DNA of 19,488 nt from Candidatus Eiseniibacteriota bacterium (GTDB taxonomy: Bacteria; Eisenbacteria; RBG-16-71-46), in NCBI GenBank assembly GCA_031370785.1, contig JANMQY010000072.1:1-19488 (forward strand). Direction: 5' to 3'. Within the stretch, counting starts at the first letter, position 1, and each line of letters starts with the position of its first letter. Positions 2,969 to 18,880 of the stretch are shown here, piece by piece. The position numbers were made by a program, and so were the translations under genes. The notes under the pieces are model-generated. The model had not been told where the DNA came from. It made no database searches and was given only the letters and a program-made list of their open reading frames with translations.

Positions 2969-3031
2969 CGGCGCGTGGCGCCGGGGCTCTACTTCGCGGC
3001 GCTCGAGTGGAACGGAAGCCTGCTGATACGC
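2969..3031 (+). pseudogene. Orphan remnant encoding the end of a FlgD-Ig/T9SS-like C-terminal domain (RRVAPGLYFAALEWNGSLLIR)
   Basis: The peptide aligns with the tails of the two neighbouring minus-strand proteins (APVAVGIYFARLEWAGSRLER; GRRVAPGLYLIRAE). 2975-3016 matches the reverse complement of 3195-3236 at 31/42 nt. No upstream domain body. Confidence 0.55.
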
Positions 3032-3048
3032 GGCAGGCGCCCGACCTG

Positions 3049-3137
3049 CGACTGTCCCCGGGGACAGTTGAGGCGGCGGGCGTACAACTCGCTCCAGAGC
3101 GAGTTGAGCGACAACTGGGTCTGGACCCAGTTGTCGC
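3049..3137. repeat. Cluster of three related 22-bp palindromes (REP-like), consensus CRACT-NNN-YC-NN-GR-NNN-AGTTG
   Basis: 3049-3070 CGACTGTCCC-CG-GGGACAGTTG; 3085-3106 CAACTCGCTC-CA-GAGCGAGTTG; 3112-3133 CAACTGGGTC-TG-GACCCAGTTG, whose arms extend to 14 bp (3108-3137). Confidence 0.85.
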
Positions 3138-3158: not shown

Positions 3159-5228
3159 CTAGCGGACCACCGCGACCTTGCGCTCGAGTCTCGATCCCGC
3201 CCACTCCAGCCGCGCGAAGTAGATCCCGACGGCCACCGGAGCGCCGTCTTCCCCGCGCGTGTCCCACGTCACCTGGTGCTGGCCCGCTCCGAGTGGACCA
3301 TCGATGAGCGTTCGCACCCGTCGCCCATCCGTCCCGAACACCGTGAGGCGCACGTTCGAGCCGCCCTGCCCTGCGGCGGGCAGAGTGAACGCGAAGCGTG
3401 CGTTTGTCATCGCCGGGTTGGGAAGCGGAGGAGCGAAGGCAAAGCTCGCGCCCTCTCCGGCCTCGACGCCCGCCGTGTTGCGCACGCGCAGCAGGCCACC
3501 GGCGAGCAATGGAATCGGAAGGCCTTCGTTGAACAGCACTCCGGTGAGCGACAGCGGAATGTCGGTGCCGCTCGGTGTCGAGGGATCGGTCGTCACGTCC
3601 ACGTACCCGAGCACGCCGCCACCGCCGGTGAGTGATGCGCCGTTGGCGGCGGCCACGAACACGCTGCTCGCGCCCTGATTGAAGGTCGGGGTGGCCCAGG
3701 CGGACAGCAGGCCACTGCGAACCGGAATCGCCGACGATACGTACGAGTACGACCAGTTGAAGCGATATTCCATAGCCCGGATGTTGAGCGGAGTGAGACT
3801 GCGATCCACGTTGAGCGGAATGTGCGCGGTGCTGCCCGAGTTGGCGGTCACGGTGCCGATCGAGAGCGCGAAGTCGTAGACCGTGATGTCGCCGCTGAGC
3901 GCCACGCCGCCCACGTTGTCCACCGCCTTCACCTTGGTCACGCCACCCCCCATCGCGGTCAGTAAACCCGACGACGGGTTGATCGTCGCGACCGCCGTAT
4001 TGAGCGTGCTCCAGGTCAGCGGCAGCACCGGGCTGCCGGATGTGGTGAATGCCTGTGTCTGCCCCGCGAGCAGCGTGACGCTGTTGGGACTCACGCTGAA
4101 CGCATTCGGCGAGGTCACGTTCACGCTGCCGTTCGTGCGCAGCGCAGGCATCGTCTCGTTGAAGAGCGCGGTGCCGAGCGAGAGCCCGATGAAGGCGGCA
4201 TTGACGGGACTGGCGGTGAAGTTCAGGTAGAACAGCGTTCCCGCTCCGGACAGATCGGTCGTGCCCGCGAAGTCCACGGTCACGGTCGTATAGGGCCCGG
4301 AGTCGAGCGTGCCGTAGGCCATCGATCCGTAACCGTTGAGCAGCGTCCCCGCCTGGCGCGTGACCGAGGTGAGCGTGAGGTAGTCGTGGTTCCAGGTGAC
4401 CTGCATCTCGCCCGATCGAACGCCACCACCGGTCAGGCTCGTCGTCGTGACCGGAATGCTGACGGCCTGTCCGAGAAAGGCGCTGCCGGTGCCGACCGTC
4501 ACCGCGGCGACACGAATCAGGATGTCGCCGTCAGACTGGTCGGTGTGCCCCCCGTTGTCGGCCGCATTCACCCGCACCGCGCCGGGCGCCGCCCCGGTCA
4601 GTAGTCCCGTGGAGCTGATCGTGGCGATCGCATTGTCGGTCGTGCTCCACGCCACCGGATTCACCACGCTGCCGGACGCCGTGAACTGAAGCGTCTGCCC
4701 GCGCGCGATCTCCGCCGTGTTGGGAGAGACGAAGATCTGCGGCGTCTGATTGACCGTGATCGAGCCGCTCACCAGCGATGCGGTGGGCGTGCCTTCGTTG
4801 AACATGAAGTTCGCGAGGGTCAGTCCCGTGTAGTTGCCATTCAACCACGCGGGATCGATCAGAAACGTGACGTTGAGCAGAGTGCCGGCGCCGGTGAGCG
4901 CGTTCGCGCCCCCACCTGCAATCCGGATCCTGCCGCTGGTCACTGAAATGGTCGGAGTGCCCCAGCCGGCCGAGCCGGTGAGCGTCGCGGCGGTCGTGAC
5001 ACCCGTCGCAGTGACCACGCTGGCGTTGTAGAAGAGATCGAACTCGTACGAACGGACGTTGAGACCTGTGAGATCGGATGCAGTGAGCGCTACGGTCACG
5101 GACTGCCCTGCGAGACCGCTGGCGGTCCCGCAGGTGACGGTCGCCGCGGCGAGAGGCCCGGCGGCAGCCAACCCGCCGAGCATCAGCGCCAGCGCAACCA
5201 GCCGGCCGGCCCATCGATGAGGACGCAT
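3159..5228 (-). CDS. Secreted scaffoldin-like protein: signal peptide - cohesin - Big_2 - cohesin - Big_2 - cohesin - FlgD-Ig/T9SS-like C-terminal domain (~689 aa)
   Basis: ATG at 5228 with AAGGA SD is preferred over TTG at 5258. Signal peptide MRPHRWAGRLVALALMLGGLAAAGPLAAA. Three cohesin-pattern domains (G-Q/S-x-V/A-x-V/I...S-x-E-x-x-x-x-Y/W-N...L-x-G-x-G-x-L-x-x-x-x-F...FNE) at ~4750-5141, ~4116-4509 and ~3483-3873. Two Big_2 repeats (VSPN...GQT-x-x-FT-x-SGS...WST...ATI...GLLT). C-terminal PNP...GRRVRTL...GQHQVTWD...GIYFARLE...KVAVVR. Confidence 0.85.
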   Translation of the reverse strand: MRPHRWAGRLVALALMLGGLAAAGPLAAATVTCGTASGLAGQSVTVALTASDLTGLNVRSYEFDLFYNASVVTATGVTTAATLTGSAGWGTPTISVTSGRIRIAGGGANALTGAGTLLNVTFLIDPAWLNGNYTGLTLANFMFNEGTPTASLVSGSITVNQTPQIFVSPNTAEIARGQTLQFTASGSVVNPVAWSTTDNAIATISSTGLLTGAAPGAVRVNAADNGGHTDQSDGDILIRVAAVTVGTGSAFLGQAVSIPVTTTSLTGGGVRSGEMQVTWNHDYLTLTSVTRQAGTLLNGYGSMAYGTLDSGPYTTVTVDFAGTTDLSGAGTLFYLNFTASPVNAAFIGLSLGTALFNETMPALRTNGSVNVTSPNAFSVSPNSVTLLAGQTQAFTTSGSPVLPLTWSTLNTAVATINPSSGLLTAMGGGVTKVKAVDNVGGVALSGDITVYDFALSIGTVTANSGSTAHIPLNVDRSLTPLNIRAMEYRFNWSYSYVSSAIPVRSGLLSAWATPTFNQGASSVFVAAANGASLTGGGGVLGYVDVTTDPSTPSGTDIPLSLTGVLFNEGLPIPLLAGGLLRVRNTAGVEAGEGASFAFAPPLPNPAMTNARFAFTLPAAGQGGSNVRLTVFGTDGRRVRTLIDGPLGAGQHQVTWDTRGEDGAPVAVGIYFARLEWAGSRLERKVAVVR

Positions 5229-5254
5229 GGTGCGTTCCTTTCTGGCCGGCGCCG

Positions 5255-8200
5255 TCAACGAATCACGATGATGCGATGGACAATGCGGAATCTGCTGGTC
5301 TCGGCTCGAATCAGGTAGAGGCCGGGCGCCACTCGGCGTCCGCTCTCATCGCTCAGGTCCCAGGTCATGGCATGCACGCCGGCGTCGAGCGAGCCGTCAT
5401 GCACGATGCGAACGAGGCGGCCCGCCAGGTCGTGCACCCGGATGCTCGCGCGCGCGCCGGCTTCGGTCGAGCTGATGCCGAAGCGCAGGTTGACCGATGC
5501 GCCGGCCGGGTTCGGCCACGGGGCGGCGAAGAACGCGACGCCCGGAATCGTCGGGGTCGGGGTCGGGACCGGCGCGGTGACCGGGATGATCTCGCGATTC
5601 ACGCGCGCCCACGAAACCGTCGGCGCCTCCCATGCGCCCTCATCGGTCGCGGGGAACGAGAACGACGCGATCTCGCCTTCGGCAATCGGCGTCGCCGACG
5701 CCAGCGCCAGCTTCGCGGTGCTGGAAGGCGTGCCGTGTGCTTCCATCGCGTCTAGCGGCACGGTCACGCCCGAGAGCGCCTGCGCGTTCGGGCCGCTCAG
5801 CTCGATCTCGGCGCCAAAGATGGGCGCGGATCCGCTGGCGATGATCGGCAGCTCCCAGTGATCGCCCACGCGGCGCGGCTCACTGGCGCGAAGCTGGAAC
5901 GTTCCATCCATGCGACGCGACGCCGCCTGAGCGATTGCGAAGTCGCCCGGCGACACCGGATGCGCTCCGGTCTGGTTGGCCGGCAACGCCGGGATCAGGC
6001 CGGCGACGAACTGAAGGATGAGCGAGGCGTCGGCGTTGTCGATCGCCCCGCTGTTGTCGACGTTGGCGACCAGCTTCTGCATGGCGGTCAGCGCGATGCT
6101 CGGCACCAGGTACTGCAGGACGAGCGAGGCGTCGTACGCGTGGACCGAACCATTCAGGCTGACATCGCCGAGCAGCGGATTCAGCAGGCCCGAGGTCGCG
6201 AAGCTCGCGTAGTTCACGTTCTGAGTGACCCCATCCCCGGTTCCGGCGTTGCTGGCAGAGCCGCACAGATCCGCCGCGGCGTTCGCGTCATTGGGACCGC
6301 TCGCCGCGCCCCACCAATTCCCGGTGGCGTCGACACAGAACGAGCCACCCGTGTTGGCGACCGCATTGAGGTAGTTGCCATAGAGACTGTTGCCGTGGAT
6401 GGTCGGGTTGCTCGCGCCCTCGACCGAAACGCCCTGGTAGTTGTAGGCGATGAGCGACGAGTCGATGCTTGGCGCCGAGTTGACGCAGCGCAGCGCGTTC
6501 GAGCCGTAGCGGATCACGCAGTTGCGGAACCGAACCTGCGGATCGATCGCGGTCCCTTCGATGATGATCGACTGCCAGTCGCTCTGATTGGGCGCCTGAT
6601 TGGAAGGATTGGCCCACGTTCTCCCGCCGTAGAAGTCGTCGCGGTACGACGTGAACACGATCAGGCTGTCGGGATGCGTGCGCCCCTCGGCGACGAACGC
6701 CCGGTTCACGTCGATATAGCCGCCCTGCAGCTTCACGATGAGCCCGGGTTGCAGGGTCATGGTGCTGCCCAGCCCGACGCCGATGGTGCCGTCGACGAAG
6801 TACGGCATGTTCAGCCGACCCGAGACGCTGCGAATCTTCCACAGAAGGTCCTGGGCGATGGTCTCGCTGATGATACCGAGCGCCTTGTAGGTGCAGTTGA
6901 CGAAGTTGACGTTCGTGAACGTCGGGTTGCTCACCAGCGACATCCGGACCGGCACCGTGCAGGTGTCGATGTTCACGTTGGTGAAGGTGGGGGCGGCATT
7001 GCCCTCGGCCGAAACGCCGACCGAGCACAGGTAGAAGGTGCTGTTGGTCACGTTGGTATTGCTGCTCATGCACCTCAATGCGGCCCAACCGGAAAAGCCG
7101 CCGAAGCGGAACCGACAGTTATTGACCACCGTGGCCGCCGAATTGCTCACACCGCTGAAGATGATCGCCGACCAGTTGTCCATGGCGGGCACCGAGGCAG
7201 CACCGTCGCCGCGCGAATCGCCGGCGAACGCGTCATCGGCGGAGGATGTGAAGACGATCAGGCTGTCGGTTTTCCCATTGGCGACCAGGGCACCATCGAT
7301 GGTGATGGCGTTTCCGAAGTTCTCGTAATAGACCCGCCCCATCTTGATCACCGTGCCTGGCGCGATGGTCCACGTGGCGCCGAACGCGATCGAGATATTG
7401 CCGGTCGGGATGTAGGCCATCCCGTTCAGGATGCCGGAGCCGAGCACGCGCGGATACGTGCGCACGTCCTGCCCGATCGTCTCGCCGAGCAGTCCCAGCG
7501 CGGTCCAGGTGTTGTTCGCGAACGTCATGTGCGCAAACGTGGGGTCGCTGATGAGCGACATGATGATCGGCAGGTAGGTGCAGTTGAGGATGGTCAGCGA
7601 GTCGCAGTTCGGCTTCGAGTTGCCGTTGCAGGTGAGCGCGGTTCCGTTCTGGAAGAATTCCAGCGCCGCGAGCTTGGGGCTGGAGCTCACGGTGGTGATG
7701 ACACCATTCACCGCGTTCGAGCCGAACTGGAACAGCAGGTTCCTCAGCAGGCACTGGGCGTCGACGGATGTGTCTTCGAAAATGATGCTGCCCCAGTTGC
7801 CGACGCCCGGGGTGCTGGCCGAGCCGTTCGCGTTGGTGTCCCCGTCCCACGCATCATCGGATATCGACGTGACCACGATCCGGTTCGTGCCGGTGCCCCC
7901 GACTACGTTTACCGCACCGTACACGTCGAACAGCGTGAAGCTGCTGGCGGGCTTGATCACCACCTGCGGCTGGATCGACAGCGTCACTCCGCTCGGAACC
8001 GTGATCTGGCCGGTCGGCACGTAAGCGAAGACCGTGGTCTGGTTGGGCGCCGGGAAGGTGACGGTCGGACGGTATTTGAGCACGGCGTTCTGTGACAGCG
8101 TCTCGGTCACCAGCGCGATCCCATTCGTGCCGTTGGTCAGGAAGATATTGCCGGTCATGGTCGGATCGGCCTGTACCGACATGAGGATGGGCGCCGACTG

Positions 8201-10030
8201 GCAGTTCTGGATGGTGTTGTTGGTAATGATCGGCGCCGAGTTGCCATTGCAACGCACGCCGTACCCCACCTTGGAGATGATATTGCCGGTGATCGTGGGT
8301 GAAGAGTTGGTACACCAGATCGCTGCGTTGTAGTCGTAGCCCTGGTAGGAACCATAGAGGAGCTTGTCGTTGGTGATCTTGCACTGGGAGTCGTTCGAGG
8401 TGTCGTTGAAGGAGATGTAGCCCCAGTCGTAGGTGTTCGGAGTGGTGATCGAGCCGTCGCCGTTGGTGTCGGGCGGGTTGCCGTAGAGGTCATCACGATA
8501 CGACGTGAACACGATCGGGCTCGGCACGGTGCCCTGTGCATCGAGCGCACCATTGATCACGAGTCCGCAGCCGCCACCCAGGAACTTGAGCACGACCCCC
8601 GGGTCGATCGTCAGCTTGGCCGGGCTGTTCATGGTGATGTAGCCGTTCATCAGCAGATAGGTGATGTTCGTGAAGCCCGCGATCGTCTTCTGCGTCAGGT
8701 GGGAATCCACGCCGATGACCTCGCCGATCAGACCGAGCGCGGTCAGTGAGTTGGCGAGGAACGTGACGTTCGTGAACGTCGGGGTGGCAGAGACCGACTG
8801 AAGGATGGGCGTCGAGGAGCAGTTGTTGATCTGCACGGTGTTGAGCACCGGGGCAGCGATGTTGTGAATGGTGATGCCGTGTCCCGCATCGCTGAGGAGG
8901 GTGTTCGACATCGGAAGATTGACGTCGGTGATTTCCACCATCCCGCTCGACCCGCTGTTGCTCCCGAACTTGAGACGGCAGTAGTTCATCGAGCCGGTCG
9001 AGCCCGCATAGTACGTGATGCTGCCCCAGTCGCCGCGGTTGGGCGCCGTGATGGAGCCGTTGTTGTTCGAATCGCGCGGCTGCCCGAAATTGTCGTCACT
9101 GATCGACGTGACGGTGATGGTGTCGGTCACCGTGCCGTTCATGGTCAGATTGCCGTACACGCCGAATCCGACACCGCCCAGCTGCTTGACCACCACTCCG
9201 GGATTGATCGTGAGGCTGGCGCTGACATTGATCGTGAGGTAGCTGAGCATGATGTAGGTGACGTTCGTGATCGGATTGACGCCCACCGTCGCGCCGCGCT
9301 TGGGCAGCGTGACGGTGCTGCTCAGCCCGCCCCCACGCAGGCCGAACGCGTCGTAGCCGTTGTTGGTGCTCGAGAACACCAGGTTCGAGAACACCGGCGC
9401 CGCAGTGAAATCGAGCACGATCGGCGTGTAGGTCGAGGCCTGAATGTCGGTATCGATGAGCAGTGGCGCGGCAGTGCCCGCGCAATCCACGCCGTAGTAC
9501 GAGCGCTGGATCGTGCAGTTCGTCAGCCGGCCCGAACAGTTGGTGAACGTCACCGCGCCTCGGTTGGAGTAACCCGCAAAGCGCACCTGCGTGAACGCCA
9601 GCCTGGTGGAATCCGGAGAGGTGTGAGTGGTGACGTAGATACTCTGCCAGTCCGACGGGTTCGGCAGCGTCGCTCCACCGTCTCCGTTGGTATCGCCGCC
9701 CGCATTGTCGTCGCGGATGGTCGTGAAGATCACGTTGCTCGCGCCGGTGCCGAGCGTCTGAAGTGATCCGGCGACGTTGAGATATGTGCCCGGATCGAAT
9801 TTCACGACCACGCCCTGACGCACCGTCAGCGTGACGGCGCCGTTGACGTTGATCGCGTTCCGCACCCAGAACACGTCCGCTTCGACGGTCGAACCGGACC
9901 CGGGCAGGCCCCACGACGTGTTGGCGGCGATGCTGGTGGTGATCTGTACCGTGACCGCGCTGGCGACAGCGGCCGTGAGCAGAGAGAACAGACAGACGAG
10001 AGCGGCGAGGATGCAGGGGGTCCGTCGCAT
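5255..10030 (-). CDS. Large secreted parallel beta-helix repeat protein with a type I-like dockerin, a degenerate cohesin-like domain and a FlgD-Ig/T9SS-like C-terminal domain (1591 aa)
   Basis: Signal peptide (MRRTPCILAALVCLFSLLTAAVASA). Six ~200-aa modules, then a DATGNWWGAASGP cap. Duplicated dockerin loops GDVSLNGSVHAYDASLVLQY / ANVDNSGAIDNADASLILQF at ~5981-6172. Pro-Thr linker (TAPVPTPTPTIP). C-terminal PNP...DLAGRLVR...WDLSDESGRRVAPGLYLIR. Confidence 0.88.
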   Translation of the reverse strand: MRRTPCILAALVCLFSLLTAAVASAVTVQITTSIAANTSWGLPGSGSTVEADVFWVRNAINVNGAVTLTVRQGVVVKFDPGTYLNVAGSLQTLGTGASNVIFTTIRDDNAGGDTNGDGGATLPNPSDWQSIYVTTHTSPDSTRLAFTQVRFAGYSNRGAVTFTNCSGRLTNCTIQRSYYGVDCAGTAAPLLIDTDIQASTYTPIVLDFTAAPVFSNLVFSSTNNGYDAFGLRGGGLSSTVTLPKRGATVGVNPITNVTYIMLSYLTINVSASLTINPGVVVKQLGGVGFGVYGNLTMNGTVTDTITVTSISDDNFGQPRDSNNNGSITAPNRGDWGSITYYAGSTGSMNYCRLKFGSNSGSSGMVEITDVNLPMSNTLLSDAGHGITIHNIAAPVLNTVQINNCSSTPILQSVSATPTFTNVTFLANSLTALGLIGEVIGVDSHLTQKTIAGFTNITYLLMNGYITMNSPAKLTIDPGVVLKFLGGGCGLVINGALDAQGTVPSPIVFTSYRDDLYGNPPDTNGDGSITTPNTYDWGYISFNDTSNDSQCKITNDKLLYGSYQGYDYNAAIWCTNSSPTITGNIISKVGYGVRCNGNSAPIITNNTIQNCQSAPILMSVQADPTMTGNIFLTNGTNGIALVTETLSQNAVLKYRPTVTFPAPNQTTVFAYVPTGQITVPSGVTLSIQPQVVIKPASSFTLFDVYGAVNVVGGTGTNRIVVTSISDDAWDGDTNANGSASTPGVGNWGSIIFEDTSVDAQCLLRNLLFQFGSNAVNGVITTVSSSPKLAALEFFQNGTALTCNGNSKPNCDSLTILNCTYLPIIMSLISDPTFAHMTFANNTWTALGLLGETIGQDVRTYPRVLGSGILNGMAYIPTGNISIAFGATWTIAPGTVIKMGRVYYENFGNAITIDGALVANGKTDSLIVFTSSADDAFAGDSRGDGAASVPAMDNWSAIIFSGVSNSAATVVNNCRFRFGGFSGWAALRCMSSNTNVTNSTFYLCSVGVSAEGNAAPTFTNVNIDTCTVPVRMSLVSNPTFTNVNFVNCTYKALGIISETIAQDLLWKIRSVSGRLNMPYFVDGTIGVGLGSTMTLQPGLIVKLQGGYIDVNRAFVAEGRTHPDSLIVFTSYRDDFYGGRTWANPSNQAPNQSDWQSIIIEGTAIDPQVRFRNCVIRYGSNALRCVNSAPSIDSSLIAYNYQGVSVEGASNPTIHGNSLYGNYLNAVANTGGSFCVDATGNWWGAASGPNDANAAADLCGSASNAGTGDGVTQNVNYASFATSGLLNPLLGDVSLNGSVHAYDASLVLQYLVPSIALTAMQKLVANVDNSGAIDNADASLILQFVAGLIPALPANQTGAHPVSPGDFAIAQAASRRMDGTFQLRASEPRRVGDHWELPIIASGSAPIFGAEIELSGPNAQALSGVTVPLDAMEAHGTPSSTAKLALASATPIAEGEIASFSFPATDEGAWEAPTVSWARVNREIIPVTAPVPTPTPTIPGVAFFAAPWPNPAGASVNLRFGISSTEAGARASIRVHDLAGRLVRIVHDGSLDAGVHAMTWDLSDESGRRVAPGLYLIRAETSRFRIVHRIIVIR
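6300..9900 (-). repeat. Six intragenic tandem modules of ~199-212 aa
   Basis: The conserved T-S/T-x-x-DD...P...D/N-W-x-x-I motif has its DD codons at 9707, 9092, 8489, 7853, 7232 and 6635 (spacings 615, 603, 636, 621, 597 nt). Exact DNA matches persist: 6907-6926 = 8764-8783 and 6645-6662 = 8499-8516. Outer boundaries are approximate. Confidence 0.85.
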
Positions 10031-10127: not shown

Positions 10128-10195
10128 TTGGCATTAATCAGACGCTACATTCCCGGAACAATCACGGGAATTATTTTGGGACTGGCATTTTTGTC
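10128..10195. promoter_or_regulatory. AT-rich putative promoter/operator region upstream of the dockerin-cohesin operon
   Basis: Conspicuously AT-rich patch with the inverted repeat ATTCCCG-N9-CGGGAAT (10149-10171), flanked by TGGCATT direct repeats (10129-10135, 10183-10189). No clean -35/-10 identified. Confidence 0.4.
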
Positions 10196-10402
10196 GTGTG
10201 CCACGGCACAGGGCGGTCGAGTTCGAGCCCCAGGATCGGCGATCTGCGTCCTCGACCCGAGGTCGGGGCTCTTCGAACCCGACTCCCTGATCAATGGTCA
10301 GGTCGCTCGAAGGCAACGGGCGTTTAGGTTCTGGAGCGAGGAATCCTGACGCTGGCGCGTAGCCTTCGGCGAGCTACCCTGCCGAAGGGGCGCGGCGAGG
10401 CC

Positions 10403-10957
10403 TCAGCGCCTGCCCGCCACCCGGCGCCGCACGTCCCGGAACAGCGCGCGCATGTGCTTCCACGCCAGCCGCTGCCCCGGCCGGCCGAGCCCGGCGAGCG
10501 GCACCCACTCCGCGCTGGCCGCGTCGTCCGAGGCATGCGGGACACCGGCACGCCAGCGCGCGAGGAAGTAGAAGTTCATGGTCGGAAGGTAGCCAAAACC
10601 GCGCAGGAAGTAGCGGTCCCAGTAGAGGCCGAGCGGCTCGGCGCGGCCCACGCTCAGGCCGGTCTCCTCGCGCAGCTCGCGCCGCGCGGCGCCCTCGATG
10701 GTCTCCCCCGCCTCGAGAAATCCCCCCGGCACGTCGAGCCAGCCGATGCGAGGCGGATGCGCGCGACGCAGAACGAGCGCGGCGTCGCCCCTGAGCACGA
10801 TGAACCCCGCGCACGGGCGCGGGTAGTCGTAGATCAGGAACCTGCAGCGCGGGCAGGCGATCTCGCGGCGTGGCCCGTTCGCGGTGCGCCGCAGCGGCCG
10901 CCCGCAGCGGGCGCACGGAAACGTGGCCACAGTGCTCCGGGCGGCCGGGCGGCTCAC
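10403..10957 (-). CDS. NUDIX hydrolase with N-terminal zinc ribbon (ADP-ribose/NADH pyrophosphatase-like)
   Basis: CARCG...CPRC zinc ribbon and Nudix box GGFLEAGETIEGAARRELREETGL. The GTG start at 10957 overlaps the upstream TGA (GTGA); an alternative GTG lies at 10930. Confidence 0.88.
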   Translation of the reverse strand: MSRPAARSTVATFPCARCGRPLRRTANGPRREIACPRCRFLIYDYPRPCAGFIVLRGDAALVLRRAHPPRIGWLDVPGGFLEAGETIEGAARRELREETGLSVGRAEPLGLYWDRYFLRGFGYLPTMNFYFLARWRAGVPHASDDAASAEWVPLAGLGRPGQRLAWKHMRALFRDVRRRVAGRR

Positions 10958-11814
10958 TCCGACTCCACCGTCACCACGGCGGGCAGCGGCGTCTTCGCCC
11001 CGGCAGCGTCGCTCTTCTTCCCCTCGTCCCACTTCCCGAAGCTGGCATAGCGGAAGCGGTCGGTGCGTACGCACAGCTCGGCCTCGTAGCCGCCGTCCAT
11101 GGCCATCGCGTGCGAGATTCCCAGCGGCGCCGCGCGCAGCAGGTGCGCAAAGTCCCAGAGCGTGTAGCCGCCCTCGCTGGTGATGACCAGCATCCGGCCC
11201 TGGGCGTCCTCAGCGACCACGGTGCGGTTCGCGACCTTGTCCGACTTGCGCACGCGGTACTGGCCCGACTCGTCGAGCAGCATGAAGGACTGGGCGATCT
11301 CGTCCCAGCCGGGCCTCGCCGGATCGATCGGTTTGACTGCCAGATCGAGCACGTGGGCGGCGCGGGCGCCGTTGCGCTTGCCCGCGACCAGCGCGGCCTT
11401 GAAGCCAGTGTGCACCTCGTCCGAAACCACCTTCCCCGAGCACACCAGCAGGCCCATGTAGGAGTAATCGGGGTAGAACTGCCCGGCGTTGAACACCGCC
11501 AGCGCCCCGGTCGCGCGCTGCCATTCGACGATGTTGAGCGGCGTCTGGCGCGGGATCAGGGAGTAGTGGTGAACGCGAAGGCGCAGCCGCGAGGGGTCGA
11601 TCCGCAGCACGGCGATCTCGGAGGAGCCATGCCGGCACCACGGATCACCGCGCACGGTGGTGAATTCGAGACCGGGGCGGAGCGTCCGCCAGCGCGGCAG
11701 TCCCGGACCGTGGGTCACCAGGTAGGCGCCCACCGCGACCGCGAGCAGGGCAGAGATCCGCGCGACGGGAACGTGGCGTGGCGGCATGAGGTGCGATTGT
11801 GCGGGTCGCCTCAC
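10954..11814 (-). CDS. Phosphodiester glycosidase family (NAGPA/DUF2233-like) exported protein
   Basis: N-terminal hydrophobic anchor; family motifs AVFNAGQF, GLLVCSGK, ANRTVVAED, AMAMDGG. The start could alternatively be ATG at 11787. Confidence 0.8.
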   Translation of the reverse strand: MRRPAQSHLMPPRHVPVARISALLAVAVGAYLVTHGPGLPRWRTLRPGLEFTTVRGDPWCRHGSSEIAVLRIDPSRLRLRVHHYSLIPRQTPLNIVEWQRATGALAVFNAGQFYPDYSYMGLLVCSGKVVSDEVHTGFKAALVAGKRNGARAAHVLDLAVKPIDPARPGWDEIAQSFMLLDESGQYRVRKSDKVANRTVVAEDAQGRMLVITSEGGYTLWDFAHLLRAAPLGISHAMAMDGGYEAELCVRTDRFRYASFGKWDEGKKSDAAGAKTPLPAVVTVESE

Positions 11815-11829
11815 GGCGAAGTCAAAAGG

Positions 11830-13047
11830 TCAGGCCACCTGGCGCCGGCGTGGGGTCTCTCGCAGCCGGTGGAACAGCTCTTCGAGCTTGGACACGGTGC
11901 GCTCGAAGTCGTGCTCCTCGACCGCGCGCAGTCGCCCGCTCTCGCCGAAGGAGATGCGCGCCATGGGGTCGATCAGCAGGGTTGCGAGCGCGTTGGTGAA
12001 GGATCCCAGGTCTTTCGGCTGGACCAGCATGCCTTCCGCGCCCTGTGTGATCAGATCCTGGATCACGCCCATCGGGCTCCCCACCACCGGAAGCCCCGAA
12101 GCCATCGCCTGCAGGACGAACAGCCCGCCGGCCTCGTGGCCCACCACCGGGGCCATCGCCACCTGACACGAGCCGTAGAGCGCCGGCAGGTCCGCGCGCG
12201 GAACGCTCGGCACCGCGAACGCGCGCTGGGCCAGGCCCATCTCGCGGGCCTCCGAGAGGAACACCTGGTGCCAGTCGGGATTGGAAGGATCGCGCCCGGC
12301 CACCACGAACTCGACGTCAGGAACGCGCGCGCGCACCGCGACCAGCAGGTCGAGCACCCTGGCGGCGCCGCGCGCGTGGGTCGGGGGCCCGAGGAACAGA
12401 ACGCGCGGCCGGTCGCGCGTCTCCCACAGCTCGGCGACGGCGGCCGACCTCGGGGGTTCGGGCTGGGGGCGGTAGCGGTTCGCATCGACGCCGTAGTGCA
12501 GCAGCTCGATCGGGCGTCCGAGTCCTGCGTTCAGGCGCACGCGGGTGAAGGCGGAGTGCGAGAGCACGAGGCGGGCGGTCGCGGCGAGCGCGACCTTCTC
12601 TTCCATTGCGCGCATGCGCGAGAGGCCGGCGCACGCGCCGCAGCCGGGGTAAGGAAAGTGCTCGCCGCAGGCTTCCATCCGCGGGCGGCGCAGCAGGTCG
12701 GTGTTCGGGCAGATCGGCCAGAAGTCGTGGACGTCGAGAAGGACCGGCAGCTCGCGGAGGATCTCCACCACGCGCGGGCCGAGCGGCCCACCGGTCGCGA
12801 CGTGCACCACATCCGGCTCGTCGGCGAGCGCTTCGCCGAGCACTGCCTCGAACCCTTCCTGTCCGGGACGCAACACCGAGTACCCCGGCGGGTCCTCGGC
12901 TTCCTGCCACGGCTCGAGCGGATTGACTGCGATCACCTGCACACGGTGTCCGCGAATCACCCATTGGTCGCACAGGTCCGACAACCACAGCGCCGGCTCG
13001 CTCAGGCTCGCGGCTTCGAGCCCATCGGCGAGCAGCAGAATCTTCAA
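11830..13047 (-). CDS. Glycosyltransferase family 4 (GT-B fold), 405 aa
   Basis: TTG start at 13047 (MKILLLAD) overlaps the upstream TGA, with GGGGAG SD. Motifs GHRVQVI, PDVVHV, HDFWPICP, YGVDANRY, VLFLG, EAGGLFVLQAMASGLPVVGS, GMLVQPKD. Confidence 0.9.
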   Translation of the reverse strand: MKILLLADGLEAASLSEPALWLSDLCDQWVIRGHRVQVIAVNPLEPWQEAEDPPGYSVLRPGQEGFEAVLGEALADEPDVVHVATGGPLGPRVVEILRELPVLLDVHDFWPICPNTDLLRRPRMEACGEHFPYPGCGACAGLSRMRAMEEKVALAATARLVLSHSAFTRVRLNAGLGRPIELLHYGVDANRYRPQPEPPRSAAVAELWETRDRPRVLFLGPPTHARGAARVLDLLVAVRARVPDVEFVVAGRDPSNPDWHQVFLSEAREMGLAQRAFAVPSVPRADLPALYGSCQVAMAPVVGHEAGGLFVLQAMASGLPVVGSPMGVIQDLITQGAEGMLVQPKDLGSFTNALATLLIDPMARISFGESGRLRAVEEHDFERTVSKLEELFHRLRETPRRRQVA

Positions 13048-13505
13048 GCGGCTTGCTCCCCTTCCTCCGGCCCTTCGAGGAACGCCGTCAGCGCCTCGAG
13101 GTCGGTGCGAGCGAGACGGTGTCCTGGCTGGATCCAGAGCGTGTGGTAGAGCAGGCGAAGCGCATCTTCGACCGCGCCCATCTCGAAGCATGCCGCCGAG
13201 GCGATATAGAAGAGCTGGGGATCGTGCGGCGAGCACGCGAGCCCGCGCAGGGCGCGGCTCAGGCCCTCGCGGTCGTCGGCGTTGGCGAGCGCCTTCTCGG
13301 CGGCGCGCATGAACATCTCGGCGGCGTCGGCATCGGGCGGCGGGTCGAGGCCCGGGATGTGAAGCTCGAGCTCGGCGAGCGCGCGCCTCAGGGTGAACGA
13401 AACGTACGGCTCGAGTCCGGGAACGTCGGTGTCCGAGACCCGGTCCGCAAGGCGCGACAGCGCGAGCGTGATGTCGAGAATTGTCGGATGCGATGATTCC
13501 GGCAC
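13044..13505 (-). CDS. Small tetratricopeptide-repeat protein (~153 aa)
   Basis: GGAGG SD precedes GTG at 13505 (the ORF track starts at 13520). TPR-like helices: GLSRALRGLACSPHDPQLFYIASAACFEMGAVEDALRLLYHTLWIQPGHRLARTDL. Confidence 0.75.
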   Translation of the reverse strand: MPESSHPTILDITLALSRLADRVSDTDVPGLEPYVSFTLRRALAELELHIPGLDPPPDADAAEMFMRAAEKALANADDREGLSRALRGLACSPHDPQLFYIASAACFEMGAVEDALRLLYHTLWIQPGHRLARTDLEALTAFLEGPEEGEQAA

Positions 13506-13712: not shown

Positions 13713-14600
13713 TCAGTCGCGAGCGAAGCGCGGGTCGGCGGCGCGCAGGAATTGCTCCAACACGTTCCCGGCCACGCTGCTGCGGTATTCGCGCTCGGAG
13801 CGCACGTCGTCGATCGGGGCGATGTCTTCCAGCAGAGCTGCTCGCGCCCTTGCCGCCAGTGCCGCCGAGGGCTTCTCGCCGAGCAGCAGCGACTCGGCGC
13901 GCTGGGAGCGCACCGTCACCGGCGCGACGCTTCCCCACGCCAGGCGCGCGCCAGAAACCACGCGCCTGCGATCCCGCGCCAACACTCCGCTGAACACCAC
14001 CTTGGAGATGCTCTGCGCGCGCCGCGTGCCGACCTTGCGGAAGAAGGAGAACGATTCGCTCGGCGGGAAGGGGATCTCGACCGCCGTGATCAGCTCGTCC
14101 GGATCGAGGATCATCTCGCGGTAGCCGCGATACAGGTTCTCGAACGCGACCGCACGCCGCCCCCGCACCGAGCGCGCGTGCACGATCGCCTCGTGCGCGA
14201 GCAGCACCGGCAGGGAGTCGCCGGCGGGCGAAGCGTTCGCAATATTGCCCGCGAGCGTGGCGCGGCTCTGGATCTGCCACGCTCCAACCACCGCCGCCGC
14301 CGCGGTCAGCGATGGCAGCCGGCGCCTGAGCACGGCGTGCTCGCCGATCTCGCGGAACGTCACCGCCGCGCCGATCGTCACCCGGTCGCGCGCCACGCGG
14401 ATGCCGCGCAACTCCCGCACCGCGGAGAGATCGAGGAAGCGCGTGCCGCGATGCGAGCCAGCGTTCAGGTAGACGAAGAGATCGGTGCCGCCCGCGAGCG
14501 GCGTCATGCGCTCGGAGGAAAGCGAGTTGTGGAGCGCCTCCAGCGCGCGATCGAGCACGCGCGGCCGCGTGACTTCGAGCGTGGAGAGGGCAGATCTCAC
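13713..14600 (-). CDS. Xanthine dehydrogenase family FAD-binding subunit (295 aa)
   Basis: GTG at 14600 overlaps the upstream TGA. Motifs PLAGGTDL, IGAAVT, QIQSRATLAGNIANASPAGD, FRKVGTRRA, APIDDVRS..EYR. Confidence 0.92.
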   Translation of the reverse strand: MRSALSTLEVTRPRVLDRALEALHNSLSSERMTPLAGGTDLFVYLNAGSHRGTRFLDLSAVRELRGIRVARDRVTIGAAVTFREIGEHAVLRRRLPSLTAAAAVVGAWQIQSRATLAGNIANASPAGDSLPVLLAHEAIVHARSVRGRRAVAFENLYRGYREMILDPDELITAVEIPFPPSESFSFFRKVGTRRAQSISKVVFSGVLARDRRRVVSGARLAWGSVAPVTVRSQRAESLLLGEKPSAALAARARAALLEDIAPIDDVRSEREYRSSVAGNVLEQFLRAADPRFARD

Positions 14601-15214
14601 TTGCGCTTCTTCTGCTTCGGCGCGGCACGCCGGCTCTTCGGGGCGGCGCGGCGGGGCTTGCTTGTGGTGCGCGATCTCTTGGACGCCGCGCGCCGGGGCT
14701 TCGTCGCCGTCTTCCTTCGTGCGCTCGCGCGCTTCGGTTGCGCGCTGCGCGCCGCGGCACGGACGGCGTCGATGATCTTCTGGTAGCCGGTGCAGCGGCA
14801 CAGGTTGCCGGCCAGCGCGTCGCGCACTTCGCTGTCGCTCGGGACGCGGCCGCGGGCGCGCGCCAGCAGCTCGGTGGCGGTGACCAGCATTCCCGGGGTG
14901 CAGATGCCGCACTGCGCGCCGCCCAGATCGACGAACGCCTGCTGCAGCGCGTTCAAACGCGTGCCCTTCGCCAGCCCTTCGACCGTCACGATGCGCGTGC
15001 CTTCCGCCTGAACCGCAGGCACCAGGCACGAGTTCACGCTGCGGCCGTCGAGCAGCACGCTGCACGCGCCGCACTCGCCCTCGCCGCAGCCCTCCTTGGA
15101 GCCCGGCAGCGCGCAGTCCTCGCGCAGCACATCGAGCAGGCGTTTCATCGGCGGCACCTTCACGCGCCGCGCGCGGCCATTGACGTTGAACGAGACCGAG
15201 ATCTTCCCGCTCAC
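14597..15214 (-). CDS. Xanthine dehydrogenase family (2Fe-2S)-binding subunit with a basic low-complexity C-terminal tail (205 aa)
   Basis: GTG at 15214 overlaps the upstream TGA. Motifs RLLDVLRE, KEGCGEGECGAC, NSCL, QCGICTPG, GNLCRCTGY. Confidence 0.93.
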   Translation of the reverse strand: MSGKISVSFNVNGRARRVKVPPMKRLLDVLREDCALPGSKEGCGEGECGACSVLLDGRSVNSCLVPAVQAEGTRIVTVEGLAKGTRLNALQQAFVDLGGAQCGICTPGMLVTATELLARARGRVPSDSEVRDALAGNLCRCTGYQKIIDAVRAAARSAQPKRASARRKTATKPRRAASKRSRTTSKPRRAAPKSRRAAPKQKKRK

Positions 15215-15785
15215 GCTTCGTCCTCTTCCCGGTTCTTGTCGCGAGCTTCTTCCGCGCGATCTTCCGTAAGATTCGCGAACGGGTGCCGACCGTGGTGTTC
15301 GAGAAATTCGCGCAGCAGTTCCGCTTCGAGCGGAGCGGGGTCCTGGTCGGGCGTTGGCAGCCACGCGATGAGCAGCGCTTCGTGATCCTCGAGTTGCCAC
15401 ACCAGCCGCCCTCCCCAGTGCGCGAGGCGCTTGCCCTGACCGAAGCGCAGGTAGCGCTTCACCCGCTGCTGGAGCAGCGAGCGGACGCCGGGACCGGACG
15501 CGAGGCCGTAGTAGAGAACCTGCGCGCCGGCGACCCACTCCGCTTCCAGTCGCGCGCGATCCACGCTCGGATCCTGCCCGCGATACCAGCCGCCGACGCT
15601 CGTCGCGAGGAACTCGGGCTCCACGAGCGATTCGCGCACCGTCGCATAGACGCCGCGCACCACCGGCACTTCGAGACAGCGGCCGTCGTGGAGCGCGCCC
15701 ACCGCTCGAAAGCCCTCGAAGCCGCGCGCCTTGAGCGCCGCGATCGAGCCGGGCAACGCGTGCGCGCCGCTCTCGGTCGCCACGC

Positions 15786-15789
<4 letters not shown>
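15211..15789 (-). CDS. GIY-YIG nuclease superfamily-like hypothetical protein (192 aa)
   Basis: The real gene is the last 192 codons of ORF 15211..17574, with GTGA overlaps at both ends. Motifs RGVYA ... VLYYGLA ... LQQRV ... HWGGRLVWQL ... LEAELL ... PFAN correspond to the GIY / YIG / Arg / Glu / Asn elements. Confidence 0.7.
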
Positions 15790-18134
<2,345 letters not shown>

Positions 18135-18136
18135 CT

Positions 18137-18880
18137 CTACAGCTCCACGTCCCGGTGAACGTCCTTGTAGTAGATGTAGCGCGCCGGGCTCGAGCTGGTG
18201 GCGTAGAACGACTGCGGGCAGAACGGCCCCATCCAGATGAAGTCGCCGGCCCGCACCTCGCGCCAGCGATCGCCGAGGTAGTAGACGCCCTGACCTTCGA
18301 GCATGTAGAGCCCGTGCTCCATCACGTGAGTCTCGGTCACCGGAAGCGAGAAGCCCGGCGGGAAGGTGAAGATGTTCATCGCCATGTCGAACCTGGGTTC
18401 GATCGGCAGCAGGGTCTTGAGCAGCAGCTCGTTCACGCCCATGAACGGCTCGCCCTTGACCGCGCTCTCGTTGCCGGCCACATCGTCGGGCCGCGCCTCG
18501 CCGAAAGGCTGGTAGCGCTTCTTGAGCCACAGCAGCTTCGCGCCTTTGGAGGTGAGCGCGAACTTCGAGCCCGGCTTGAGGAACGCGAAGCCGCCGGCCT
18601 TGAGCGCGTGCGTCATGCCGTTGGCCTTGATGTCCGCCGCGCCTTCGATCACGTAGAAGAACGCCTCGATGCCCTGGGCGAGCGTCTGCTCGCTGCCGCC
18701 GCCGGCCTCGACGTCGATCAGATACTGTGCGAAGCGCGCTCCCATCGCGGGCGAGGCCAGGATACGCACTTCGCTCGTGCTCCACTCCGGCAGCGCGAAC
18801 GCCGGGATCCCTTCGGGCGGCAGGATCGCGTAGTTGCGCTCGACCACCACCCGGCTCGTGACCAGCCCCTTTTGCGGCAT
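18137..18880 (-). CDS. allE: (S)-ureidoglycine aminohydrolase (bicupin)
   Basis: SPAMGARFAQY; Mn-binding segment ETHVMEHGLYMLEGQG; GDFIWMGPFCPQ; YIYYKDVHR. GAGG SD, purine-catabolic context. Confidence 0.9.
   Translation of the reverse strand: MPQKGLVTSRVVVERNYAILPPEGIPAFALPEWSTSEVRILASPAMGARFAQYLIDVEAGGGSEQTLAQGIEAFFYVIEGAADIKANGMTHALKAGGFAFLKPGSKFALTSKGAKLLWLKKRYQPFGEARPDDVAGNESAVKGEPFMGVNELLLKTLLPIEPRFDMAMNIFTFPPGFSLPVTETHVMEHGLYMLEGQGVYYLGDRWREVRAGDFIWMGPFCPQSFYATSSSPARYIYYKDVHRDVEL

Follow-up and report, generated by a model that had tools for sequence, protein, structure and literature searches.

Gene pair and domain composition

Our analysis concerns two adjacent genes, hereafter A and B, in a stretch of 19,488 nucleotides (nt) of DNA from a Candidatus Eiseniibacteriota bacterium (GenBank assembly GCA_031370785.1, contig JANMQY010000072.1). 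This stretch (the window) is the complete contig C78 of genome G000, which measures 3.44 Mb and is 100% complete by markers; labels of the types C### (contigs of G000), G### (genomes of relatives) and L### (loci), as well as P0223 (a protein), are those of the analysis. Both genes lie on the minus strand, co-oriented and separated by a gap of 26 nt (the stop codon of B ends at 5255 and the ATG of A is at 5228). Gene A encodes a protein with three cohesins and two Big_2 domains, gene B a beta-helix protein with a calcium-loop dockerin, and both proteins end in the same type of C-terminal domain, similar to type IX secretion system (T9SS) sorting domains. An earlier reading of the sequence (the original prediction) had proposed all of this, and open reading frame (ORF) coordinates, family profiles and fold matches bear it out. 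In B, it missed both a fourth cohesin (residues 1378-1486) directly behind the dockerin and six tandem repeats of ~205 amino acids (aa). The features of the two genes are the following (rmsd, root mean square deviation; Ig, immunoglobulin).

5255..10030, minus: gene B, 1591 aa from 10030; signal peptide, six beta-helix repeats, cap, dockerin, own cohesin, T9SS-type tail
9956..10030, minus: predicted Sec signal peptide of B, residues 1-25, by eye
6389..9955, minus: six tandem ~205-aa right-handed beta-helix repeats of B, the sixth shorter (Pfam, profile comparison)
5975..6184, minus: type I-like dockerin of B, residues 1283-1352, two calcium-loop-helix segments (4uyq_B, E 6e-9; 5m2o_B, Z 10.9; 2ccl_B, rmsd 0.9)
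5573..5899, minus: fourth, cis cohesin, in B, residues 1378-1486, ninth strand shortened (2xdh, E 1e-5; 2vo8_A, Z 11.8, rmsd 2.9, 110 residues)
5258..5533, minus: C-terminal T9SS type A-like sorting domain of B, FlgD_ig-like (TIGR04183, 26.6 bits)
5229..5254, minus: B-A spacer of 26 nt, with a purine-rich ribosome-binding-like stretch ahead of A
3159..5228, minus: gene A, 689 aa from the ATG at 5228; signal peptide, Coh1-Big2-Coh2-Big2-Coh3, T9SS-type tail
4749..5144, minus: cohesin 1 of A, residues 29-160 (2vn5_A, Z 17.9, rmsd 2.0, 131 residues)
4512..4748, minus: Big_2 Ig-like spacer 1 of A (Pfam)
4113..4511, minus: cohesin 2 of A, residues 240-372 (2vo8_A, Z 16.0; 1ohz_A, Z 15.8)
3876..4112, minus: Big_2 Ig-like spacer 2 of A (Pfam; 7quz, Z 12.3)
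3477..3875, minus: cohesin 3 of A, residues 452-584 (5nrk_A, E 5e-5; 5aoz_A, Z 13.3)
3162..3449, minus: C-terminal T9SS type A-like sorting domain of A (C-terminal domains of PorU, 6za2, Z 12.1, of PorZ, 5m11, Z 9.9, and of mirolase, 8qb1, Z 9.6)

Pfam recognises Cohesin (65.5 bits, two stretches above the cut-off), Big_2 (two stretches) and FlgD_ig in A. The third cohesin falls below the Pfam cut-off, yet it scores 55.7 bits against a profile of the first one and is modelled as a nine-strand sandwich, like the other two. The AlphaFold2 (AF2) model of A, built from an alignment of 112 rows, has a mean predicted local distance difference test score (pLDDT) of 92 and a predicted template modelling score (pTM) of 0.59. 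As a whole it retrieves only generic Ig chains with Foldseek, and a fold search at the level of domains was used instead; in these models, the cohesins of A are real cohesin folds (Z 17.9, 16.0 and 13.3 on type I cohesins). Similarly, the tail of A superposes on the C-terminal domain of PorU with an rmsd of 3.1 over 94 residues. The signal peptides of A and B are predictions, read from the sequence by eye; they show a basic start, a hydrophobic stretch and an A-x-A motif, and A26 and A28 are conserved.

Among 47 orthologues, the period of the head of A is constant (203-211 aa), whereas the region that links the head to the C-terminus, made up of fn3, PKD or Ig domains, can be as short as 75 aa or as long as 1058 aa in complete copies. 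This layout of fixed head and variable stalk is that of an anchored presenting protein. The period of the A head (~207) is close to that of the B repeats (~205), which we treated as a coincidence. In two A orthologues (L099:8158-11010 and L107:15330-18167), a dockerin-like segment replaces the sorting tail, which is the layout of an adaptor scaffoldin.

In B, Pfam identifies Beta_helix (four stretches), Dockerin_1 and FlgD_ig, and no glycoside hydrolase (GH), polysaccharide lyase (PL) or carbohydrate-binding module (CBM) family. The repeat is of a beta-helix type that is widespread and without a name (ESM Atlas 0.97; Beta_helix and Beta_helix_4), and profile search detected no solved relative of the repeat region, with only NosD at E 0.055. 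Each repeat carries an aspartate-rich loop, T-S-x-x-D-D...D-T-N, at residues 103, 308, 509, 721, 928 and 1127, which resembles a Ca2+ site. The conserved polar residues come back at an equivalent position in all six repeats rather than forming one cluster, a pattern that agrees better with a structural rod than with an enzyme.

The dockerin and the four cohesins

The dockerin of B scores 22.5 bits with Dockerin_1 (PF00404), just below the Pfam cut-off of 22.9, and 29.7 bits in a six-frame search. Dockerins bind calcium through positions n, n+2, n+4 and n+11 of each loop and owe their specificity to positions n+9/n+10, according to a part of PMC7608827. Across 45 loci, the loop 1 ligands D1289, S1291, N1293 and D1300 are kept at 96-100%, as are n and n+11 of loop 2, where n+4 is variable; positions n+9/n+10 are A and Y/F in loop 1 and looser in loop 2 (N-A in this copy). 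Over the same 45 paired loci, mean identity reaches 59% for the dockerin, 36, 36 and 28% for the cohesins of A, and 24% for the cis cohesin. A dockerin conserved above all cohesins is as expected of a hub held by several partners.

All four cohesins have conserved surface-type residues in common on strands 3, 6 and 8: strand 3 bears S and Q/E, strand 6 has small residues, and strand 8 ends in N-E. S60, Q/E62, A106 and N144 are found in 96-100% and E145 in 89-100% of the 45 loci. Strands 8-3-6-5 of a cohesin form the dockerin-binding sheet, or plateau, as stated in a section of PMC8063739. The cis cohesin keeps plateau residues as well (A in 96% and N in 100% of the 45 loci), with N-R instead of N-E in this copy, and distant homologues of B show Pfam Cohesin at the position of the cis cohesin. 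When the dockerin, linker and cohesin of B were modelled together with AF2 (45 rows), the pLDDT was 94.8 and the pTM 0.90, compared with a pTM of 0.59 for the domain chain of A. The dockerin and cis cohesin are thus placed as one rigid body, and binding in cis at the canonical face is a prediction. No single solved chain spans both domains according to a Foldseek search with this model.

Conservation of the gene pair

Scanning genomes with two motifs of the B repeat returned 408 related stretches, of which the best 80 fall into 66 loci; seven of these end within the repeats and nine end at most 24 nt past the end of the dockerin ORF, leaving 50 informative loci. Gene A follows B in all 50, directly in 48 of them and with a small cohesin gene in between in two Cloacimonadota loci; one locus of this set (L082) is a frameshifted copy. 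A metagenome scan with a dockerin motif returned 320 related stretches, of which the best 80 were used and 64 have at least 900 nt downstream; A follows the dockerin gene in 61 of the 64, the exceptions being L158, L180 and L187. Among ORFs long enough to tell, a cohesin lies at most 45 residues past the dockerin in 53 out of 53 in the genome set and in 79 out of 79 in the metagenome set.

Relatives of A number 148 at E <= 0.001 among 7,988 scored candidates, and nearly all have ~690 aa and the same domains. Named homologues of A and B are mostly from Ca. Eisenbacteria. A is present in 13 of 60 related genomes, with B directly upstream in 11 of the 13; in the other two, the contig ends at the start of A. 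(A contig scan with A alone, using exact peptide patterns, gave no match, the patterns being too strict.) According to record titles, the pair occurs in Eisenbacteria, Bacteroidota (Bacteroidales, Bacteroidia, Balneola), Ignavibacteria, Krumholzibacteriota, Latescibacteria, Cloacimonadota, Gemmatimonadota, Zixibacteria and SM23_31; the order B then A is conserved across the Fibrobacterota-Chlorobiota-Bacteroidota (FCB) superphylum. Of the three outcomes that the original prediction had named as speaking against it, two were looked for, namely domains modelling as generic Ig or CBM folds and genes failing to co-occur in relatives; what we found are cohesin folds and genes that do co-occur.

A third small gene (signal peptide, cohesin and tail, ~270 aa) follows A in 8 of the 13 relatives, in one of which it is broken, and is absent from G000. 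Examples are L034:11576-12379, in which the strand-8 motif is N-G and not N-E, and L084:15852-16694.

Natural variants of the pair also occur. P0223, a protein of 2714 aa known from a single record, is B up to the dockerin fused to the Coh-Big2-Coh-Big2-Coh of A and a Bacteroidota-type tail. In this protein the first cohesin of A stands in the place of the cis cohesin, the only loss of the cis cohesin that we saw, and the fusion could be a natural deletion. At L158, a Big_1 passenger bears the same dockerin-cohesin-tail ending beside a two-cohesin gene with A motifs, and L145 has two dockerin genes followed by one A; these two loci indicate that the dockerin cassette is what travels with the cohesin gene. 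This ending occurs on other passengers at L145, L158, L180 and L092 (cadherin/Ig, Big_1, LVIVD and HYDIN-like Ig proteins). G000 itself encodes, at C97:4166-6517 (L004), a Cys-rich secreted protein of 784 aa that ends in a dockerin-like segment of another kind, followed by a cohesin-like domain and a tail, that is, a second dockerin-cohesin-tail ending within the genome.

Export and genome context

The T9SS profile TIGR04183 matches B with 26.6 bits (cut-off 23) and A with 14.3 bits, below the cut-off, and the tails score better as FlgD_ig. Type A cargo of this system is recognised by a signal peptide and a C-terminal sorting domain, and A and B have both (signal peptides by eye, tail of A by fold). 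The original prediction had proposed a search for PorV, PorU and SprA homologues, and all three are found in the genome: SprA on contig C113 (E 3e-116), PorU above the cut-off and adjoining a PorV gene on contig C142, and nine genes of the PorV family above the cut-off. SprA is present in 57 of the 61 genomes searched. G000 further contains 67 FlgD_ig matches and 101 ORFs with an A-like C-terminal tail. In Porphyromonas gingivalis, type A tails go to PorV, PorU cleaves them and anionic lipopolysaccharide (A-LPS) is attached, as reported in a section of PMC11205867.

Family profiles run over G000 found one such dockerin, that of B, and such cohesins only in A and B, with a weak match on C97; likewise, Pfam Dockerin_1 exceeds its cut-off only in B in the six-frame search of the genome. 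As this dockerin is the single one of its type in G000, it is the only candidate ligand of that type, and A-B is a one-to-one module, not a cellulosome. The multi-cohesin scaffoldin of a cellulosome does have a counterpart in A, with its three cohesins. A cellulosome also comprises at least one dockerin-bearing glycoside hydrolase, as set out in a section of PMC11557425; here, the weaker dockerin protein of C97 is without a Pfam catalytic domain, and B is without GH or PL. That section of this RefSeq survey lists no FCB organism. Anchoring through CBM3, S-layer homology (SLH) or sortase has no counterpart in A or B by Pfam and NCBIfam, and the statement of the original prediction that CBM, GH, SLH and sortase signals are lacking thus holds.

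Proposed mechanism and rival explanations

It is likely that the products of A and B leave the cell by a T9SS-like route and become linked at its surface. We give about even chances to a mechanism in which B, a surface rod exported by the T9SS, starts with a self-capped dockerin and passes it on by exchange to the three cohesins of A, the binding of A to B being presumed. A and B would be exported separately, through Sec over the inner membrane and through SprA/PorV over the outer membrane by means of their tails, which PorU would trim, perhaps attaching the proteins to the surface by analogy with Porphyromonas. Together with Ca2+, B would form a non-catalytic rod that measures very roughly 20 nm, given the typical rise of a beta-helix, and we infer a role in adhesion or as a surface coat from the absence of catalytic signatures together with the rod-and-stalk layout. 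The cis cohesin would act as a placeholder that occupies the dockerin, letting A and B travel as single chains. Outside the cell, the better-conserved cohesins of A would compete for the same face of the dockerin, with up to three rods per A, and a freed cis cohesin could take the dockerin of another B, extending the assembly. Only tentatively, and with more doubt than conviction, do we put forward the broader version of this idea, an FCB-wide T9SS-coupled assembly in which a cis-auto-inhibited dockerin is released onto a rigid three-cohesin partner, rods being gathered in threes and chained, and which in Eisenbacteria would use a T9SS without GldM/GldN motor.

Several observations weigh against the exchange mechanism or the evidence cited for it. 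A tethered cohesin is at very high local concentration, against which the cohesins of A may never prevail; a type I dockerin has competing sites and holds a single cohesin at any moment (1:1, as described in a part of PMC7608827). A and B each carry their own tail, so that B needs no A for anchoring. The AF2 model of the tandem was judged by its scores, without coordinates or a control, and resemblance to solved cohesin-dockerin complexes may have shaped it. The motifs common to the four cohesins could be structural, and the excess of conservation of the front sheet over the back, from a rough in/out assignment, is small (0.54 vs 0.48, 0.53 vs 0.49, 0.49 vs 0.41 and 0.43 vs 0.37). The two sets of loci were ranked by how closely they resemble B, they overlap, and common descent links them, so that their counts show conservation rather than independent trials. 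Among the loci, L187 has a divergent B whose 5.5 kb of downstream sequence contain no A, and at L180 a dockerin protein stands without an A, while genomes G010, G019 and G058 match the B repeat region only, with neither A nor dockerin (assembly gaps are possible); the fusion P0223 could be a misassembly. Finally, neither GldM nor GldN was found in G000 and in G014 (GldK and GldL were not searched, and divergent versions could escape); they were found in two of three control genomes of the Bacteroidota group, the Balneola genome being blank too. The export route is thus not a complete canonical T9SS, and that of G000 is possibly motor-less or divergent. Two further analyses leave the balance as it is. 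Complex prediction for the three-cohesin region of A with the isolated dockerin and two calcium ions gave 0.05 and 0.02 (mark 0.32), with controls not folded, and counts neither for nor against binding; mutual information with average product correction (MI-APC) over 91 paired loci gave a dockerin-cohesin signal no greater than the dockerin-Big_2 control, and is uninformative.

In the main rival explanation, the dockerin would never leave its own cohesin, and the two would form a Ca2+-dependent joint, mechanical or stabilising, from rod to anchor, while A, a co-exported rigid protein of Ig and cohesin folds, would work beside B or grip the rod or another ligand, without the dockerin. We find this rather unlikely, even though the tandem is present in 53 of 53 and 79 of 79 ORFs and is modelled with a pTM of 0.90, the same ending sits on unrelated cargo without a neighbouring A (the C97 protein of G000, L092 and L180), and cohesin-tail proteins without an adjacent dockerin gene exist (L037). 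Such a clasp does not account for three cohesins with the plateau residues of the cis cohesin standing beside the gene of the dockerin in 50 loci out of 50, for a pairing that outlives a change of passenger (L158), or for a dockerin with more than double the conservation of its cis partner. The original prediction saw in A a mini-scaffoldin clustering up to three rods. The dedicated pair and the folds stand, but the dockerin is no free plug: its own cohesin follows and is predicted to pack on it, so that an exchange step would be needed. The plain form of this idea has a free dockerin, a fourth cohesin that is either an inert spacer or the socket of a further B, and up to three rods bound directly by A; it is in our opinion improbable. 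All the evidence from pair conservation and folds speaks for it, of the four cohesins the cis one has eroded most (24% identity, a shortened ninth strand and N-R here), and the linker to the cis cohesin, which measures 12-13 residues in some Bacteroidota, may there be too short for binding in cis; however, AF2 puts dockerin and cis cohesin together as a rigid unit, and the cis cohesin keeps its plateau residues and is lost nowhere but in the fusion P0223.

It is very unlikely, to our mind, that the pair is a minimal degradative complex of the cellulosome kind, with B a lyase or hydrolase of polysaccharides, belonging to the pectate-lyase beta-helix clan and having several sites, and A concentrating it on the surface. 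This would agree with the Pfam Beta_helix matches, with automatic 'pectate-lyase like' cluster names and with the cellulosome-like degradative complexes proposed for Cloacimonadota in a part of PMC8542988. Nevertheless, Pfam finds no GH, PL or CBM and profile search no solved enzyme (NosD only, E 0.055), the conserved polar residues come once per repeat, six times, and not at one site, and one dockerin gene per genome means no enzyme mixture to assemble.

Surroundings of the gene pair

The region upstream of B contains one further feature.

10170..10197, minus: sigma-70-like consensus match upstream of B (9/12 positions, single site; 0.1 expected in shuffles; pattern match only)

No terminator-like site was found 3' of gene A. 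The lower GC of B had raised the idea of a recent transfer, which was rejected because third-position GC (0.87 and 0.84) matches that of the flanking genes (0.82-0.90). Short pieces of the intergenic region 3' of A (window 2971-3100) recur on five other contigs (80-92% over 35-55 nt) and on several contigs of one relative too, and an inverted repeat is visible near 3110-3135; these pieces are possibly elements of the repetitive extragenic palindromic (REP) kind. In two RNA runs of one study (share 0.08), contigs of a relative ~91% alike span A and B and diverge at ~3085 and ~10068, at both ends of the B-A block; long flat contigs of this sort cannot show expression.

The flanking genes are ordinary. 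At 1186-2688 and 10403-13236, both on the minus strand, Pfam identifies an aldehyde dehydrogenase, a NUDIX hydrolase, a NAGPA-type phosphodiester glycosidase and a GT4 glycosyltransferase. A molybdopterin dehydrogenase cluster, presumably devoted to purine catabolism, occupies 13713-18880 (minus), with FAD_binding_5 and CO_deh_flav_C by Pfam and a 2Fe-2S subunit, large subunits and a cupin read by eye.

Relation to known systems and implications

The closest structural matches are the type I pairs of clostridia (C. cellulolyticum CipC, 2vn5; A. cellulolyticus ScaC-ScaB, 4uyp/4uyq; C. acetobutylicum, 6kgc), with Z of 17.4-17.9 for the cohesin fold and rmsd of 0.9-1.7 for the dockerin. A-B and clostridial cellulosomes both have the duplicated Ca-loop-helix (n, n+2, n+4, n+11) and a multi-cohesin non-catalytic protein. 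Unlike them, A-B belongs to a diderm host, bears T9SS-type tails on both proteins and has one dockerin gene instead of dozens; CBM, GH, SLH and sortase signals are absent, rigid Big_2 spacers separate the cohesins, the dockerin is followed by a cohesin of its own, and it is conserved across phyla rather than species-specific.

The non-cellulosomal cohesin of Archaeoglobus fulgidus (2xdh) matches the cohesins described here in sequence and fold. It reportedly comes from two adjacent genes, one of which carries both a cohesin and a dockerin. The A. fulgidus pair differs from A-B in being archaeal and made of small proteins, with no beta-helix rod, three-cohesin head or T9SS tail; its non-cellulosomal cohesin is mentioned in a passage of PMC12484212. 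Closer in taxonomy, the cellulosome-like complex of Ca. Stygibacter (Cloacimonadota), as far as it is presented in a part of PMC8542988, is also from an FCB-related diderm, and its predicted scaffoldin-like protein likewise combines cohesins in tandem with a sorting domain at the C-terminus, but this scaffold has 3,755 aa and CBM2/CBM3 and goes with several dockerin-bearing hydrolases and peptidases, whereas A has 689 aa, no CBM and one non-catalytic dockerin protein. In the FCB bacterium Chlorobium chlorochromatii, Cag_2037/Cag_2038 are adjacent, co-expressed cohesin and dockerin genes for which surface bridging was proposed and binding predicted; they differ in having one type II cohesin, export by a type I secretion system with repeats-in-toxin motifs (T1SS/RTX), Ig stalks and an alginate lyase (parts of bioRxiv 10.64898/2026.03.19.712371). 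Giant proteins of Omnitrophota are another non-cellulosomal or diderm case in print (a section of bioRxiv 10.1101/2023.11.21.568195). With the type A cargo of Bacteroidota (C-terminal domains of PorU, PorZ and mirolase), A and B have in common the tail fold, TIGR04183 for B, and SprA, PorV and PorU in the genome; the differences are a host outside Bacteroidota, tails that score better as FlgD_ig, and GldM/GldN that were not found.

In the full-text literature searched, which has most subscription journals outside its scope, no published account was found of the A-B pair, nor of any dockerin with a cohesin of the same chain as its cap. The original prediction of an undescribed system is thus sustained for the gene pair within that literature, but not for non-cellulosomal cohesin-dockerin pairs in diderms as such.

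To our knowledge, cohesin-dockerin pairs are known almost only from cellulosomes, and their role elsewhere is an old open question. A-B offers a small, testable non-cellulosomal case, in which gene order is kept over about ten phylum- or class-level FCB lineages and the recognition residues of the dockerin barely change across them. It also points to a T9SS outer-membrane module (SprA, PorV, PorU and about 100 cargo proteins) without detectable GldM/GldN motor in an uncultured phylum. If the cis cap is indeed displaced by the partner, this would be a form of regulation that we did not find described for cohesin or dockerin modules, and it would provide a switchable plug and socket for protein engineering.

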